Source: Octopus sinensis
Lineage: Eukaryota
Direction of reading: 5' to 3'
DNA length: 64,000 nucleotides
NCBI RefSeq assembly: GCF_006345805.1
Contig: NC_043004.1
Location: forward strand, 102,734,001-102,798,000
In this document: positions 6,406 to 60,928 of the stretch, piece by piece
Position numbering within the stretch: the first letter of the stretch is position 1
Layout of the letters: each line of letters opens with the position of its first letter
Notes under the pieces: model-generated
Databases searched by the model: none
Told to the model about the DNA's origin: nothing
What the model saw: only the letters and a program-made list of their open reading frames with translations
Position numbers and translations under genes: made by a program

Positions 6406-7089
6406 TTAACCTGTTCACATTTTAACCAGCCATATCAGGCCAAAATATTCTACCTGTTTTACATTCAAACAAACCAAATTGTCCCCTCACACTTAGCCTG
6501 CAATGTCATTCTAAAAAAGAAAAAAAAAATAGATAACCAGTGCCGGTGACAAGTAAGCGTACCATCCGATCGTGGCCGTTGCCAGCGCCGCCCCGATTTG
6601 CCTCCGTGCTGGTGGCACGTAAAAAGCACCATCCGTTCGTGACCGTTGCCAGCCTCGTCTGGCACGTAAAAAGCACCATTCGATCGTGGCCATTGCCAGC
6701 GCTGCCCCGACTGGCCTCTGTGCTGGTGGCACGTAAAAAGCCCCATCCATCCGTGGCCGTTTTGCCAGCCCCGTCTGGCACCTGTGTGGGTGGCACGTAA
6801 AAAGCACCCACTACACTCACGGAGCGGTTGGCGTTAGGAAGGGCATCCAGCCGTAGAAACTCTGCCAGATCAGACTGGGCCTGATGCAGCCTTCTGGCTT
6901 CCAGACCCCAGTTGAACCGTCCAAACCATGCTAGCATGGAAAGCGGATGCTAAATGACGATGATGATGATGACGATGAATCACATCTTTGAAAAATCTCA
7001 AAACTACAGGATGGTGCACGATTAATTCAAAACAAAGTGAATGAATAAGCTTTACATTTGACAGAGTAATCTGAGTGCTAAAGGGTTAA
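6406..7089. mobile_element. TTAA-flanked (piggyBac-like) MITE interrupted by an RTE 3' fragment
   Basis: TTAACC...AAAGGGTTAA termini; outer parts match the uninterrupted copy at 62610-62836 (opposite orientation) and 36171-36724. Confidence 0.75.
6537..6978 (+). mobile_element. RTE LINE 3'-UTR fragment (family B)
   Basis: ~60-bp GGTGGCACGTAAAAAGCACCATCCGA subrepeats, GGTTGGCGTTAGGAAGGGCATCCAG block, (TGA)n tail. Confidence 0.85.
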
Positions 7090-22433: not shown

Positions 22434-23101
22434 CATCATCATCATCATCATTGTCCGACCGTGGTCGAGACAATGGAATTTACCATGCTACACCACACTT
22501 CATGGTCCATTATGGCATTACGGTGGTCCTGTTGCTGGATGGCTGTATCCCTGGAGATTACATCAGGGTAGGAGAGTGTGCGCCCTCTGGTATTGCGAGT
22601 AGATGGCTTCCAGAGGAGAAGAGTAGAAGTTACCTCTTTTTCAGCTCTACAACAATGTCCAGCAAACTGGACTCTCTTACTTTTCACAAGAGATGACACA
22701 GGTGGTAGTTTCCCATATATTTGCATTTTGGTTGGATGGCGCTTCCACGAGAGATTTTGAGCTCTCATAAGGAGGTGAGTGTAGGTTCCATCCAAACGCC
22801 TCTCAAGCTTCTTTGATAACGTCCAGGTTTCTGAGCCATATAGTAGAATTGGTTCGACTGTGGCTTTGAAGATTTCAAGTTTGAAGTCTCTACTTAGATT
22901 TGATGACCAGATCTTATGCATGTCATTACAGGCTGACCAGGCCATACCCTTTCTAGTTAGAAAGTCTTTTCCAGATGATGATATGTATGACCCAAGATAT
23001 TTGTAATCAGAAACCATATTTAAGGGCACATTGTTGAGAGTATGGATGATGCAATCACTGTTGGACAGGCACTTGTTTATGTATTCAGTCTTGGCCTCAT
23101 T
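22434..23101 (-). mobile_element. Young 5'-truncated RTE-clade LINE (end of RT domain and C-terminus)
   Basis: Uninterrupted frame NEAKTEY...DYKYLGS...ILLYGSETWTL...QFAGHCCR...RGR to stop at 22448; (TGA)n tail; 8-bp TSD AATAAACT at 22426-22433 and 23102-23109. Confidence 0.93.
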
Positions 23102-23204
23102 AATAAACTAATTAGACTATACACACAGTAAAGTGATATCATTATTATTATGAGCATAAACATTAGTATTACTAACATAAACACTACCCCAAGTGTTTCT
23201 GCTG

Positions 23205-24045: not shown

Positions 24046-24770
24046 GCTGGAACTGCAGATCAAGGTTTAAGACTTAGTCCTTTCGGAAGTTTCTTCTCAT
24101 CTTCCTCCATAAACAACTTCATACACATTGCTTTTCTAACATCAGTAGTTTTTATTGCCTGAAACAACCTCAGCTGGGTTTAAACCATAGAAATATAATT
24201 AACTTAATTGAGAAAAGCATATCACTTAACATTTCCCAATTCTCCATGACTCTAATATCACAGAAACAGTACAATGTCTACTATTAAATTATATTTAGCA
24301 ATGCAAATGCTTAAACAGCATTCCTGTTCTATTTTTCAGTTGTACATTAATAGTGCAAAGTGCTTAGAGTATTAAGGAGTATTAAGGCATGTTGTGAGAC
24401 AAGCTCGATACTTGCACAAGTAAATTTGAGACCAGAGTTCTGAAGTGAAAATTCTGGCCAGATTGACTTACCCTTTCACCCTCCTGTATGACCCAATTTA
24501 AGAGTTACATCAGCTAAGGAGAGAAAGTAGAAAGTGAGTGGGTGGAATTTACAGTTTAATGTAATGATTAAGTTCAAGAACAAACCTAAAATGGGTTTAC
24601 AACGCCAGCAAGTGACTACCATAATCCCTTTTGAGTAAGTATATCAGTCTGATGTAGCCTGTACTGCACCAAGTTATGCCCAAGGGAGGATTTTGATAGA
24701 ACCCCCAACAATTACATACTGCCGCTGAGTTTCTCAACAATGAGCTATCTCACCCATGGAACAACAGGTT

Positions 24771-27436
24771 TTTGTGGTACCAGTGCCGGTGGCACACAAG
24801 AAAACCACCCAAACGTGGCCGTAACCAGTACCGCATCGACTGGCCTCCGTGCTGTGGGCACAACAAACACCATCCAATCGTGGCCGTTCGCCAGCCTCAT
24901 CTGGCACCTGTGCCGGTGGCACATAAAGACACCATCCGAAGACCCGGCGACGTAGTCAGTCCACCTGTGCATACCTTCCCTCTTATGACACTTGTGAAGA
25001 CCTGTTGAGGCAAGTGTGGGACACTTGTGAAGACCTGTTGAGGCAGAGGCAAGTGTGTGACACTTGTGGAGACCTGTTGAGGCAAGTGTGTGACCCTTGT
25101 GAAGACCTGTTGAGGCAAGTGAAAATCAAATCAAACCATATCAAAATAGATGAATATCAATGGAATTTGTATCTTTGTGGTTCCAGTACCGGTGGCACAC
25201 AAGAAAACCATCCGAGCGTGGCCGTAGCTGGTACCGCATCGACTGGCCTCCGTGCTGTGGGCACAACAAACACCATCTGATCGTGGCCGTTCGCCAGCCT
25301 CACCTGGCACCTGTGTCGGTGGCACATAAAAACACCATCCAAAGACCCGGCGACGTAGTCAGTCCACCTGTGCATACCTTCCCTCTTACGACACTTGTGA
25401 AGACCTGTTGAGGCAGAGGCAAGTGTGTGACACTTTGTGAAGACCTGTTGAGGCAGAGGCAAGTGTGTAACACTTGTGGAGACCTGTTGAGGCAAGTGTG
25501 TGACACGCGTGACACTTGTGAAGACCTGTTGAGGCAAGTGAAAATCAAACCAAATCAAAATAGATGAACATCAATGGAATTTGTATCTTTGTGGTTCCAG
25601 TACCGGTGGCACACAAGAAAACCATCCGATCGTGGCCGTTCGCCAGCCCATCTGGCACCTGTGTCGGTGGCACATAAAGACACCATCCGAAGACCCGGCG
25701 ACGTAGACAGTCCACCTGTGCATACCTTCCTTCTTGTGACACTTGTGAAGACCTGTTGAGGCAAGTGAAAATCAAATCAAATCAAATCAAGTCAAAACAA
25801 ATCAAAATAGATGAACATCAGTGGAATTGTATTCTTTGTGGTACCAGTGCCGGTGGCACACAAGAAAACCACCCAAACGTGGCCGTAACCAGTACCGCAT
25901 CGACTGGCCTCCGTGCTGTGGGCACAACAAACACCATCCGATCGTGGCCGTTCGCCAGCCTCATCTGGCACCTGTGCCGGTGGCACATAAAGACACCATC
26001 CGAAGACCCGGCGACGTAGTCAGTCCACCTGTGCATACCTTCCCTCTTATGACACTTGTGAAGACCTGTTGAGGCAAGTGTGTGACACTTGTGAAGACCT
26101 GTTGAGGCAGAGGCAAGTGTGTGACACTTGTGGAGACCTGTTGAGGCAAGTGTGTGACCCTTGTGAAGACCTGTTGAGGCAAGTGAAAATCAAACCAAAT
26201 CAAAATAGATGAATATCAATGGAATTTGTATCTTTGTGGTTCCAGTACCGGTGGCACACAAGAAAACCATCCGAGCGTGGCCGTAGCTGGTACCGCATCG
26301 ACTGGCCTCCGTGCTGTGGCACAACAAACACCATCTGATCGTGGCCGTTCGCCAGCCTCACCTGGCACCTGTGTCGGTGGCACATAAAAACACCATCCAA
26401 AGACCCGGCGACGTAGTCAGTCCACCTGTGCATACCTTCCCTCTTACGACACTTGTGAAGACCTGTTGAGGCAGAGGCAAGTGTGTGACACTTGTGAAGA
26501 CCTGTTGAGGCAGAGGCAAGTGTGTAACACTTGTGGAGACCTGTTGAGGCAAGTGTGTGACACGCGTGACACTTGTGAAGACCTGTTGAGGCAAGTGAAA
26601 ATCAAACCAAATCAAAATAGATGAACATCAATGGAATTTGTATCTTTGTGGTTCCAGTACCGGTGGCACACAAGAAAACCATCCGATCGTGGCCGTTCGC
26701 CAGCCACATCTGGCACCTGTGTCGGTGGCACATAAAGACAACCATCCGAAGACCCGGCGACGTAGACAGTCCACCTGTGCATACCTTCCTTCTTGTGACA
26801 CTTGTGAAGACCTGTTGAGGCAAGTGAAAATCAAATCAAATCAAATCAAGTCAAAACAAATCAAAATAGATGAACATAAATGGAATTTGTATCTTTGTGG
26901 TACCAGTGCCGGTGGCACACAAGAAAATCATCCGAACGTGGCCGTAGCCAGTACCGCATAGACTGGCCTCCGTGCTTTGGGGACATAACAAACACCATCC
27001 GATCGTGGCCGTCCGCCAGCCTCATCTGGCACCTGTGTCGGTGGCACATAAAAACACCATCCGAGCGTGGCCGTCTGCCAGCCTCGTCTGGCACCTGCCA
27101 GCCTCATCTGGCACCTGTGTCGGTGGCACATAAAAACACCATCCGAGCGTGGCCGTCTGCCAGCCTCGTCTGGCACCTGTGTCGGTGGCACATAAAAACA
27201 CCATCCGAGCGTGGCCGTTCGCCAGCCTCGTCTGGCACCTGTGTCGGTGGCACATAAAATCACCCACTACACTCTCGGAGTGGTTGGCGTTAGGAAGGGC
27301 ATCCAGCTGTAGAAACACTGCCAGATCTGACTGGCCTGGTGCAGCCTTCGGGCTCCCCAGACCCCAGTTGAACCGTCCAACCCATGCTAGCATGGAAAAC
27401 GGACGCTAAATGATGATGATGATGATGATGATGATG
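24771..27436 (+). repeat. Higher-order tandem array of an RTE LINE 3' UTR
   Basis: Junction GACCCGGCGACGTAG at 24941, 25344, 25692, 26005, 26402 and 26751 (every third junction ~1.06 kb apart); only the last unit has the LINE terminus and (TGA)n; matches the single copy at 57160-57611. Confidence 0.92.
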
Positions 27437-41440: not shown

Positions 41441-41517
41441 ATATATATATATATAATATATATATATATAACGGGAAGCTTTATGAAAATAGTCAAAAGA
41501 CGAAGGCAGGTTTACGG

Positions 41518-41893
41518 AAGTAGCTTGTTTACTAACCACATATTTCCGGGTTCAGTCCCACTGCGTGGCACCTTGGGCAAGTGTCTTCTACTATAGTCTC
41601 GGGCCGACCAAAGCCTTGTGAGTGGATTTGGTAGACAGAAACTGAAAGAAGCCCGTCGTATATATATGTCTATATATGCGTGTGTGTATCTGTGTTTGTC
41701 CCCCTAGCATTGCTTGACAACCGATGCTGGTGTGTTTATGTCCCCGTTACTTAGCGGTTCGGCAAAAGAGACCGATAGAATAACTACTGGGCTTACAAAA
41801 GAGTAAGTCCCGGGGTCGAGTTGCTCGATTAAAAGCGGTGCTCCAGCATGGCCGCAGTCAAATGACTGAAACAACTAAAAGAGTAAAAGAGAG
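41518..41893 (+). mobile_element. Family A SINE lacking its A-box head (inverted partner of 41058-41440)
   Basis: Begins at AAGTAGCTTG; full body and tail. Confidence 0.9.
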
Positions 41894-41923: not shown

Positions 41924-41961
41924 CTGTCTGATGAACGGCAACGAGAAACTCAGAGTAACAG
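41924..41961 (+). ncRNA. Minimal type I hammerhead ribozyme motif (Penelope-type)
   Basis: CUGU-CUGAUGA-A-CG(GCAA)CG-A-GAAA-CUC(A)GAG-UA|ACAG; AATAAA ~30 nt downstream; the ~85-bp cassette lies between (TA)n tracts. Confidence 0.65.
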
Positions 41962-41993
41962 ATTTTGTTGAATTTTCTGCTGCTTAAAATAAA

Positions 41994-50200: not shown

Positions 50201-50624
50201 TGCATGTGGTAGAACTTAATGCATGTCACCTAATCTTTAAAAAACAAAAAGATTTTTCATTTTCAAACTGAGAAATAAACACCAATGGTTCATAAAATAA
50301 TATTGTAAAGTCACCATTATAGTCTTAGTGCTAGAGTGTTATTATGTTAGTCCACAGCATTACATACTGCAATGTTATAGTGTTAGCTACTAAAATGTCA
50401 CTATATTACACATCACAACTACTAAGGATGTATTTAGTATTCATTAAGCAACACTACGTTATAAGCATTATAAGTAAAAAAAAAAAAAGTTTTGTTCTGC
50501 ACATCCATCTGCAGATTTTACAAGCAACAAAAACAGTTTATAACAGCAAATATGACCATGATGATATTTAAAAATAAGAATGTGCAATGAATTATGAAGA
50601 AGGAGAAAATGTGTGTCACAAATG

Positions 50625-51472
50625 TGAGAGACGAGAGCGAGAGAGAGAGAAAGGTGAGAGAGAGAGAAAAGTGAGAGAGAGAGAGAAAGGGAGAGAGAGA
50701 GAGGAGGAGAGAGAGAGAGAAAGGGAGAGAGAGAGAAGGAGAGAGAGAAAGGAGAGAGAGAGAAAGGAGAGAGGAGAGAAGGGAGAGAGAGAGAGAAAGG
50801 GGAGAGAGAGATGAAGAGAGAGAGGGAGGAGGAGAGAGATGAGAGAGAGAGGGAGGAGGAGAAAGATGAGAGAGAGAGGGAGAGACGAGGGAGAGAGGGA
50901 GAGACGAGGGAGAGAGGGAGTGAGACGAGGGAGAGAGAGAAAGGGGGAGAGATGAGGGAGGAGGAGAGAGAGATGAGGGAGGAGGAGAGAGAGATGACGG
51001 AGAGAAAGAGTGAGAGATGACGAAGAGAAAGAGTGAGAGGTGACGGAGAGAAAGAGTGAGAGGTGACGGAGAGAAAGAGTGAGAGGTGACGGAGAGAAAG
51101 AGTGAGAGGTGACGGAGAGAAAGAGTGAGAGGTGACGGAGAGAAAGAGTGAGAGGTGACGGAGAGAAAGAGTGAGAGGTGACGGAGAGAAAGAGTGAGAG
51201 GTGACGGAGAGAAAGAGTGAGAGGTGACGGAGAAAGAGTGAGAGGTGACGGAGAGAAGAGGTGACGTGAGAGAAAGAGTGAGAGGTGACGGAGAGAAAGA
51301 GTGAGAGGTGACGGAGAGAAAGAGTGAGAGGTGACGGAGAGAAAGAGTGAGAGATGACGGAGAGAAAGAGTGAGAGATGACGGAGAGAAAGAGTGAGAGA
51401 TGACGGAGAGAGAGAGTGAGAGATGACGGAGAGAGAGAGATTGACAGATGAGGGAGAGAGAGAGATGAGAGG
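50625..51472. repeat. GA-rich purine tract grading into a 23-bp minisatellite
   Basis: Unit GAGAGAAAGAGTGAGAGGTGACG tandemly repeated over ~50990-51430. Confidence 0.95.
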
Positions 51473-51766
51473 ACTGCATTGAAATATATAATGTAAACAG
51501 ATGATACCTGTTAGGTTAGTATTGAATAGGTGATGCTTGGTTGAAGATGAGTTGAAAATAGAATTAGATTCCAGAAAGTTAAGACATTCACTACTGGCAG
51601 ATGTCTACGATTGGGATATGTAGAACGATGGTTCAAGAAACACATTACGACACACACACACACCACACACACAAAATATGATAATGATGTGATACGAGGA
51701 TAATATAGTTTGAATTATCAGAGGAGAGATTGAAAAAAAAAAAAAATATATATATATATATATATA

Positions 51767-57159: not shown

Positions 57160-57611
57160 GTTGTTGAGGCAAGTGAAAATCAAACCAAATCAAAATCGAT
57201 GAACATCAATGGAATTTGTATCTTTGTGGTACCAGTGCCGGTGGCACATAAGAAAACCATCCGAACGTGGCCGTAGCCAGTACCGCATCAACTGGCCTCC
57301 GTGCCGATGGCACGTAAAAAACACCATCCGAGCGTGGCCGTTCACCAGCCTCGTTTGGCACCTGTGTCGGTGGCACATAAAAAGCACCATCCGAGCGTGG
57401 CCGTTCGCCAGCCTCGTCTGGCACCTGTGTCGGTGGCACATAAAAAGCACCCACTACACTCACGGAGTGGTTGGCGTTAGGAAGGGCATCCAGCTGTAGA
57501 AACACTGCCAGATCTGACTGGCCTGGTGCAGCCTTCGGGCTTCCCAGACCCCAGTTGAACCGTCCAACCCATGCTAGCATGGAAAGTGGACATTAAACGA
57601 TGATGATGATG
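57160..57611 (+). mobile_element. Family B RTE 3' UTR, single unamplified copy
   Basis: Colinear with the last unit of the 24771-27436 array. Confidence 0.9.
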
Positions 57612-59542: not shown

Positions 59543-59586
<44 letters not shown>

Positions 59587-59589
<3 letters not shown>

Positions 59590-59980
59590 TGGTAGCCATG
59601 ATAAAACTCTGAGTTTCAGATGTCAGGGTGGAAATCCACACCACCATCTCTTCAGTTATCCGGCCATCAGAAAAAATGCTATGAAAATGACCGTTAAACA
59701 AAGTGAGGGGAGGGAGTAAAAGGGGGTAAAAATGTTCATTGTATTCCCGTAAGCGCGCATGTCCATACCTACACATGCGCACCCAGTCATTCAAATAGCT
59801 CGTGTCTTAATAACGGTCAATCACACAGTAATTTCCCTTTGTTTAACGGTTAATTTCATAGCATTTTTTCCGATGGCCGGATAACTGAAGAGATGGCGGC
59901 GTGGATTTCCACCCCGACATCCGAAACTCATGGCTCGAGGTCTCTTTCATTCTTTTGTTGTCTTACCATTTCTATCAAAA
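59587..59980. mobile_element. Penelope-like fold-back cassette between (TA)n tracts
   Basis: Inverted arms 59595-59703 / 59837-59934, each carrying a hammerhead core; interrupts a family D repeat. Confidence 0.75.
59595..59664 (-). ncRNA. Type I hammerhead ribozyme motif, complete
   Basis: GCCG-GAUAA-CUGAAGA-GAUG(22 nt)CAUC-U-GAAA-CUC(A)GAG-UU|UUAUC-A-UGGC: all three helices pair; predicted cleavage between 59605 and 59604. Confidence 0.75.
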
Positions 59981-60928
59981 TATATATATATAAGAAAGGA
60001 GGCATTAGATAATATAGTCCCGAATACCTATATTTTAAAACAAGTCAAGGTTGTAACATCACAGATGATCTGAAGTTAATAACAACTACATTAAATATAG
60101 ATAAACGATGTTCAAAATCTGAACTACCAGCCAATAAAGCTTTTCACTTAAATGATTTATTACTTAGGACTATTAAGAACAGGTGATGGTACAATATGAT
60201 GTTCATGTCATTTCTAAGGTAATATCATGTAAGCTGAATCTGCCAAACAAATTGCAATTATTTTAAGGTGTAACATTTCCTTCATTGAGTTTGAGAGAAA
60301 GAGTTAGGGAGAATAAGAGGGAGAGAGGTACATAGTAAAGGGATAGAGATAAGAGGACACCATACCAAAAAAGAAGAGAAAGGTCAAGAAAGAGAGACTT
60401 TGATTACTTCTGACCATTTGAAGTATGGAAGATTATAAAGACCCAAAAGATAGAATGCAGTAAAGATCTGAACTATGCAAAAGCGTAAAAAAGAAAAATT
60501 GATCCATTGTAAAGAAATACCAACTCAAAAAAGTGCAATCACAACAGACAATCCCAAGAGATGACTGAGATGGTAATAGACAATTGTGCCAGCCAGATTG
60601 CAAGGAAAGTAGCTATTATGTACCAGATGGTTAGAGCAATGAATCCAACCACACTATGAATGACTAACAGAACATGTCCATATGTATTTAGTTTCCTTGT
60701 GAAATTAGGTTATGAAGTTAAGCCACGTTTGGTGGAGGTGGTAGTGTTGTTGATGGCTTTGAATGAGGATCAAACTGATTACTTTTTGCTATGATAGCAG
60801 CTCATCAGGATTCTGTCTTTCTCTTTCTTGTTTCTTTGGTTACCTTTCCAAGTTGTAGAGCATTAGAAGTAGAGAGTGGTTTAATGAAATGCAAACTGAA
60901 TTCTCTCAAGGATAATTTATATAATTAA

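Follow-up and report, generated by a model that had tools for sequence, protein, structure and literature searches.

Penelope-like elements (PLEs) of the Hydra clade, which belong to the C-terminal EN+ group, are the closest described relatives of the sequence considered here. According to the parts of Craig et al. (2021; PMC8557442) on which we draw, members of this clade are short (<3 kb), insert into (TA)n, and are distinguished by an RWK motif, a DKG motif changed to DKT, a CxCX5C linker, CxxC and CxH motifs flanking the conserved E and N, and the lack of a CCHH motif within the endonuclease (EN). In the general PLE layout given in the same paper (Fig. 2 legend), copies are truncated on the 5′ side, where a further truncated copy sits in inverted orientation, and a tail is found on one side only. 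Additionally, minimal PLE hammerheads, as characterized in the available text of Cervera and De la Pena (2014; PMC4209133), reside in the pLTR, combine a large helix II with a short helix I and a palindromic helix III, and occur as many solo and opposite-strand copies 100–700 bp apart, features that all recur in the family described below; their activity in vitro is low and depends on dimers.

Two further systems are informative for comparison. In Poseidon PAc of Anolis carolinensis, the tail corresponds to the stretch between two reverse transcription start sites and the targets are AT-rich, according to the sections drawn on from Frangieh et al. (2024; PMC11167929). The parallel here is a pair of preferred 3′ ends about 65 nt apart, although Poseidon PAc belongs to another clade and its ORF start lies inside helix II, whereas the ORF of the octopus family starts approximately 265–271 nt downstream of the ribozyme. 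Non-LTR (animal) retrozymes resemble the present locus in having a type I hammerhead, as well as in the absence of coding sequence from the window copy; however, they are described, in the part of the source used here, as direct repeats in tandem, every unit of which has its own ribozyme (bioRxiv 10.64898/2026.07.22.740005), whereas the locus is one inverted pair with unique junctions. We focus on a fold-back cassette at 59587–59980 of the window, by which we mean the whole 64,000-nt stretch of Octopus sinensis DNA that was analysed. With high confidence, we read this cassette as two 5′-truncated 3′ ends of a Hydra-clade PLE placed head to head in (TA)n, likely the product of one insertion event and likely inert today.

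Architecture of the cassette and its two hammerhead motifs

The features of the locus are as follows:

59545–59586, no strand: left (TA)n tract, the target microsatellite (from the sequence; most sampled family copies end in (TA)n)
59587–59785, minus: minus arm, a 5′-truncated pLTR/3′ UTR copy without tail and with a 60-nt internal deletion near 59701–59704 (alignment to a complete natural copy)
59592–59667, minus: type I hammerhead motif that retains every invariant base of the core (scored at 100 bits by the family model, a value high by construction since this copy is included in the model)
59783–59785, no strand: head-to-head inversion junction between two truncated 5′ ends (alignment; the pattern has one genome match)
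59784–59979, plus: plus arm, a 5′-truncated pLTR copy bearing the 3′ tail (alignment to a complete natural copy)
59873–59935, plus: broken hammerhead (family model and alignment to a complete natural copy)
59935–59979, plus: remnant of the family 3′ tail, which in full-length copies stands before the ORF start
59980–59992, no strand: right (TA)n tract (from the sequence)

The two arms are 92% complementary over 97 nt (59610–59706 and 59834–59930) and lie between the (TA)n tracts. Their deletions were mapped by alignment to one complete natural copy of the family. Ahead of the stem that it has in common with the plus arm, the minus arm includes approximately 145 nt of the element; it has lost 60 nt internally and, in addition, two short stretches of 4 and 7 nt, and it stops before the short 3′ end of the element. 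The plus arm starts where the 60-nt gap of the minus arm begins and ends in the tail, which it alone carries. The arms differ from each other at 8 positions, five of which are C-to-T changes at CpG in the minus arm. Exact patterns for the 60-nt deletion junction and for the inversion junction each match once in the 2.7-Gb genome; since both are unique, this cassette has not multiplied as a whole. No tandem same-strand repeat was found at the cassette.

A contig of set X2 bridges 59854–60347, and contigs of sets X1 and X2 span 59745–59801 at single-copy depth, as expected of a real locus and not of an assembly error. Sets X1 and X2 cover unique DNA evenly, in a manner resembling genomic DNA and with no splice-like joint listed, and sets X7 and X9 have zero cover on the unique flanks; these sets, like all eight examined, consist of contigs and are uninformative on expression and on RNA ends. 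The cassette is flanked by a SINE-like repeat of very high copy number and very deep contig coverage (58623–59004 and 60938–61345; also near 41500–41880), which we take to resemble octopus SINEs. Elsewhere in the window are a 219-aa frame on the minus strand (22448–23107), presumably the C-terminal part of a LINE reverse transcriptase, arrays of repeat units of about 63 nt within another dispersed repeat (24650–27410, 57200–57500, and 6465–6950), and a long low-complexity tract (50468–51604) that is rich in purines (GA) and strongly skewed in GC.

The cores, the three helices, and the NUH site of a type I hammerhead are all present on the minus arm, but not all on the plus arm. On the minus strand, the motif comprises stem I GAUAA/UUAUC, the core CUGAAGA at 59655–59649 (C3 at 59655, A9 at 59649), a 30-nt helix II (59648–59619) that begins with G10.1 at 59648, a U at position 11.1 (59618), GAAA from 59617 (G12), the odd palindrome ACUC-A-GAGU as helix III (59614–59606), and a GUU site with U as H17 at 59605, which places the predicted scissile bond at 59605/59604. 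A strict type I hammerhead descriptor matches once in the window and in none of 300 base-shuffled windows. These results bear out the complete minus-strand cores read in a preliminary description of this DNA and agree with the cut position given there (59604/59605). The hammerhead search suggested in that description had a mixed outcome: the strict descriptor matches, whereas the Rfam scan returned 14 hits at E ≤ 5, none of them a ribozyme and none from a hammerhead family. Curated Rfam models do not cover the hammerhead form of the cassette.

The word "intact", applied in the preliminary description to the minus-strand ribozyme, is accurate for the invariant core but too generous for the rest of the motif, in which there are C-to-T changes of the CpG type, a U at position 11.1 (C in 25/30 aligned copies of the same subfamily), and an A in loop III (G in 23 of these 30). 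In the G10.1–C11.1 pair beside G12, the base before G12 is U in the window copy, and the register of the pair is ambiguous. U at 11.1 together with A in loop III is also the state of a young subfamily, discussed in the last section, so these two changes need not be disabling.

The plus arm retains both core strands and helix II (C3 at 59885, G12 at 59923). An 11-nt deletion has taken out the cleavage triplet together with the 3′ half of helix III and most of the stem I 3′ strand, and the motif cannot cleave because its cleavage site is deleted. The loss of 11 nt, and of the cleavage site with it, had been recognized in the preliminary description, but a further 56 nt are gone as well, in a second deletion before the tail. 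Likewise, the TCA microhomology proposed to bound the 11-nt deletion holds with the A in loop III of the window copy, but shrinks to TC with the majority G. The same deletion was found at four places in all, namely the window and three other loci (L102, L103, and L105); these three lack the 56-nt deletion, and the 11-nt deletion is therefore a recurrent microhomology loss. In each of L102, L103, and L105, the arm of the inverted pair that carries it is the tail-side or the sense one. Short microhomology deletions are seen in many copies of the family and may arise during reverse transcription.

An autonomous family colinear with the arms

The cassette is one among thousands of truncated insertions, all belonging to a class already described. 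Searching the species' own genome at the DNA level yielded 3,372 first-look candidates. An exact 17-mer that spans stem I and the core had 2,284 matches in the genome (1 in the control), and a pattern requiring both cores and the helix III palindrome had 2,082 (0 in the control). Family copies end at the two preferred sites mentioned above and continue into (TA)n. Among 29 loci of 3 kb chosen by likeness to the minus arm, head-to-head pairs occur in 8, and in all 8 of these the longer (tail) end is on one arm only. The junctions and arm lengths of other pairs differ from those of the window cassette.

For the ribozyme region, 69 copies were aligned without gaps, comprising the window copy and 29/40, 13/31, and 26/31 copies from three pattern searches; this alignment left out copies with indels and most identical duplicates, and its columns 9–23 were fixed by the search patterns. 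Across it, 93.5% of cells are paired, compared with 36–55% in slid controls. Two well-filled pairs are compensatory, one in stem I (GC 48, AU 11, GU 7) and one in helix II (UA 38, CG 14, UG 11), where the counts are cells rather than events and may go back to perhaps two or three inherited events; the covariation score was reached by none of 500 shuffles. In addition, an outer stem I pair is changed on both sides in 6 of the 17 copies of one group, and the subfamilies differ from one another at N7, loop III, and H17, which are free positions. Genomic copies with both cores (2,082 matches) and covariation in the helices (two compensatory pairs) bear on a point on which the preliminary description had made its reading depend. 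The hammerhead is likely real as a ribozyme in this lineage. Purifying selection on inserted copies of the window subfamily was not detected, with 5/181 mismatches in the second core half against 32/567 in the flank (P = 0.17; hand-read counts, low power), and the absence of better core conservation is as expected for dead copies. Other subfamilies (L178–L207; 734 pattern matches) carry A, C, or U at N7 and G or U in loop III, and some have GUC sites.

Upstream of the arm, a low-complexity UTR followed by the end of an ORF was reached in one locus (L005), and a search with this ORF end returned 1,687 candidates. In 21 loci of 9–10 kb picked by the ORF end, the ribozyme lies in sense downstream of it in 12. 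Several loci (L060, L063, L064, and L074) have the layout of an inverted tail and ribozyme followed by a truncated reverse transcriptase (RT), the ORF end, and the UTR. Two more (L078 and L080) contain the window's own ribozyme type with the tail and an ORF start 271 and 265 nt further on, respectively, the frames being broken beyond that. The locus L067 is organized as pLTR-ORF-pLTR, with a unit of 2,578 nt and an unbroken ORF of 708 aa; its ribozyme region is present twice, 2,578 nt apart and with 1 difference in 140 nt, as in pLTRs that come from partial tandem copies with the hammerhead. L067 represents a sister subfamily, with 79–87% DNA identity to the segments compared; an unbroken ORF was not encountered in the subfamily of the window copy itself. 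Both arms align colinearly with the 3′ UTR/pLTR of an autonomous family whose single ORF encodes a telomerase-like RT; this ORF belongs to the family and not to the window copy.

For the 708-aa protein, 979 of the 7,999 candidates scored are relatives at E ≤ 1e-20; the best of them shares 52% identity, and there is no named protein among the 120 relatives listed. Pfam assigned 0 families to the whole ORF, and a PDB sequence search named nothing. A structure model based on 97 aligned sequences (pLDDT 93.4) has telomerase RTs as its best structural matches (E 7.7e-9), and YxDD is present in 120/120 homologues listed. The preliminary description had looked to a linked ORF combining RT and GIY-YIG domains. 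The first half of this expectation is borne out by the RT ORF linked to the ribozyme; for the second, the GIY-YIG profile is weak (Pfam E 0.11 on one of three fragments, none on the whole ORF), and no endonuclease is among the listed fold matches of the model. The domain can be aligned by eye with the published Hydra EN rows, and a putative endonuclease is assigned by its position and by the published Hydra motifs.

These motifs also indicate the clade. The ORF carries RWK at 37 and DKT at 114 (in 96/120 and 120/120 of the homologues listed), the CxCX5C linker at 557, CxxC at 660, and CxH near 690, the latter motifs around E and N; there is no cysteine between the two GIY-YIG-like strands, that is, no CCHH inside the EN, and the element is shorter than 3 kb (2,578 nt) with (TA)n flanks. 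Assignment to the Nematis or Neptune clade was considered and dropped once the Hydra motifs matched. As in the Hydra clade of PMC8557442, so far as the portions consulted describe it, there is a single ORF in a unit of less than 3 kb with these motifs, the targets are (TA)n, and the type I ribozyme has a palindromic helix III with a 1-nt loop. The nearest family listed in that source is Hydra-1_Obim of Octopus bimaculoides, with which 29/43 residues are identical over RT motifs 4–5 by a by-eye count. In File S2 of the same paper, Penelope-3_HM has the same helix III with an A loop and a GUU site, and Hydra-1_oBim combines the CUGAAGA core with GUU, as here, but differs in its helices. Unlike Hydra-1_Obim, the present family has a much longer helix II (30 nt, two internal loops) with spare bases on the 3′ side. 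The 3′ UTR, when set against Hydra-clade families, measures about 0.2 kb in the young subfamily and mostly 0.6–1.1 kb in the older one, and the window, unlike Hydra-clade elements, contains two truncated ends only. A further distinction concerns the minimal PLE consensus, which in the text available to us from PMC4209133 has an extra base between A9 and G10.1, whereas here a spare base lies between helix II and G12, or else G10.1 pairs with the spare base over a bulge. From a by-eye comparison with reference proteins, the source element appears to be a further Hydra-clade family, distinct from Hydra-1_Obim.

A second, unrelated minimal hammerhead is located between (TA)n tracts at 41924–41962 of the window (plus strand), with stem I CUGU/ACAG, the core CUGAUGA, helix III ACUC-A-GAGU, and a GUA site. 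Its 13-mer has 3,486 matches against 30 in controls; since 7/8 loci are near-identical to the window copy, that family is young. Close opposite-strand pairs are listed for it as well, and the Hydra-2_aMil row of File S2 is similar to it. Further families are represented by hammerhead-like repeats next to the same (TA)n tracts in six loci (L003, L004, L007, L008, L029, and L102), which suggests that several Penelope-like families pile up in (TA)n.

Formation of the cassette and its prospects for cleavage

By analogy with Poseidon (Frangieh et al. 2024), the cassette may have formed after the endonuclease of the element nicked AT-rich DNA. Reverse transcription of a tandem transcript would then have begun from two nearby start sites, only one of which yields the tail, and both products would have stopped early before being joined. 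Deletions and CpG changes were presumably acquired by the cassette after or during insertion. The hammerhead would be the pLTR ribozyme of the family, under selection in source elements, where it may work as a slow, probably protein-assisted dimer in tandem transcripts. The Penelope-type dimer hammerhead in an inverted pLTR structure that was proposed in the preliminary description is borne out, with a linked RT ORF in the family and head-to-head pairs in 8/29 loci. The same description had also taken the locus for a non-coding Penelope/retrozyme-like unit, which was not upheld: the arms are colinear with the 3′ UTR of an autonomous element, the junctions are unique, and there is no tandem same-strand repeat. 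The related idea that the cassette stands for a non-autonomous family in its own right, resembling retrozymes or MITEs and multiplying as a fold-back unit, draws on the frequency of short head-to-head pairs in the genome and on the argument, made in the part of the preprint consulted, that non-LTR retrozymes derive from PLE pLTRs (bioRxiv 10.64898/2026.07.22.740005). It is nevertheless largely refuted, and most improbable, given that each junction pattern occurs only once in 2.7 Gb, that other pairs have their own junctions and arm lengths, and that tandem units each with a ribozyme, the defining trait in that part of the preprint, are lacking.

For the minus-arm motif, no cleavage is predicted in place, since a partner on the same strand is missing and the antisense arm pairs with it. 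Helix III is impossible in a monomer because its loop is 1 nt long; the palindrome can pair between two molecules (predicted −7.4 kcal/mol), and the family model finds no second sense hammerhead copy on the minus strand of the window. A transcript reading through on the minus strand would contain the antisense of the plus arm before the ribozyme, and this antisense is predicted to pair with the ribozyme along its whole length; in a fold of the whole minus-strand cassette, stems I and II have predicted probabilities of 0.0. When the motif is folded alone, the predicted pairs join CUGA to UCAG and A9 to U11.1 (P 0.98).

These predictions weigh on the proposal, also contained in the preliminary description, that the minus-strand ribozyme cuts a host pre-mRNA transcribed through the locus. 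All invariant core bases and the GUU site are there, thousands of other copies could in principle provide a partner in trans, and the minus strand is T-rich (15,920 A against 13,545 T on the plus strand of unmasked window DNA), a weak and the sole hint of transcription. Against these points, no host exon was found: Pfam gave no credible hit in 147/166 minus-strand and 148/154 plus-strand unmasked frames of at least 42 aa (295/320), a scan that would miss short exons and that returned four sub-threshold hits on the plus strand. The fold-back is predicted to trap the motif while it is being made, and the motif alone is predicted to misfold. Furthermore, in the sources as consulted, single minimal PLE hammerheads did not cleave in vitro and dimers did so weakly (PMC4209133), and the Poseidon ribozyme needed protein, with no matching RNA ends in RNA-seq (PMC11167929). 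Cleavage of a host transcript by this copy is thus very unlikely, and the proposal was not sustained. It is likewise very unlikely that the fold-back affects a host transcript by forming double-stranded RNA, a substrate for editing or small RNAs in which the ribozyme is irrelevant. The predicted duplex of about 97 bp (−210.9 kcal/mol) would suit such a role, but such pairs are common in the family, with nothing to mark the one in the window. A truncated and probably inert PLE insertion remains our preferred reading of the cassette.

A young subfamily with a U4C core

The sister subfamily represented by L067 has the core CCGAAGA (U4C), for which an exact 17-mer has 2,930 matches against 1 in the control. 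Its members can be listed as follows:

L067:276–2860 (minus), L106–L117, L158–L177, L208–L227: young subfamily with U4C, U at 11.1, A in loop III, intact ORFs, and near-identical copies

Among its sampled copies, 13/31 are identical over 80 nt, whereas no two of 40 are so in the older sample, and the median non-CpG distance from the majority is 2.9% compared with 6.7% in the older subfamily, with the proviso that the U4C search pattern holds a CpG and favours young copies. On these measures, the U4C subfamily appears younger than that of the window and the youngest sampled. A protein-only search found 42 places at the top score, with 100% identity over 212 aa, and three open frames of 717 codons. 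In all 20 loci taken from this search, the ORF end differs from that of L067 at 0–5 of 636 nt and core position 4 is C, the core being CCGAAGA in 18 and carrying one further change in 2. The distance from the ORF end to the ribozyme is 185–218 nt in the young subfamily. A tree built on sequence that lies downstream of the ribozyme groups the four U4C copies in a single clade (96/100), within which the copy that keeps C11.1 branches first; this tree has 9 rows and a root that is not fixed, and the partial, long-branched L091 and L095 were ignored in reading it. The young subfamily has likely been mobile recently.

Among viroids, U4C is on record as a variant with reduced activity in vitro that still allows infectivity, according to the part of PMC3088659 drawn on here, so the change may be tolerated. 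CUGA is present in each of the 26 Hydra rows of File S2 in PMC8557442, but the descriptor used there required it. None of the papers listed in our literature searches links U4C with a Penelope-like element, and a single one mentions U4C at all; this is weak evidence of absence. Pairing of the U4C core strand with the 3′ strand of helix II was considered as well and ruled out (predicted probability 0.02). The role of the hammerhead in Penelope-like elements is called unclear in the sections consulted of PMC8557442, and catalytic mutants left insertion in vitro unaffected, as reported in the available portion of PMC11167929.

We tentatively raise the possibility, which we consider less probable than its opposite, that the youngest lineage spread after acquiring U4C and then C11.1U with its helices kept, and that, if the ribozyme is crippled by these changes, cleavage would be dispensable for PLE retrotransposition in an animal genome. 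The fold, in that case, might be kept for another job, such as protein binding or the initiation of reverse transcription. The cassette itself matters little; its value is that it leads to a Hydra-clade family, likely mobile in the recent past, unlike the octopus family treated in the consulted parts of Craig et al. (PMC8557442). If the possibility raised here is true, the series of subfamilies in one genome would be a ready-made panel of natural mutants. With U4C fixed in a young lineage, the role of the hammerhead and the need for cleavage become testable with natural sequences.
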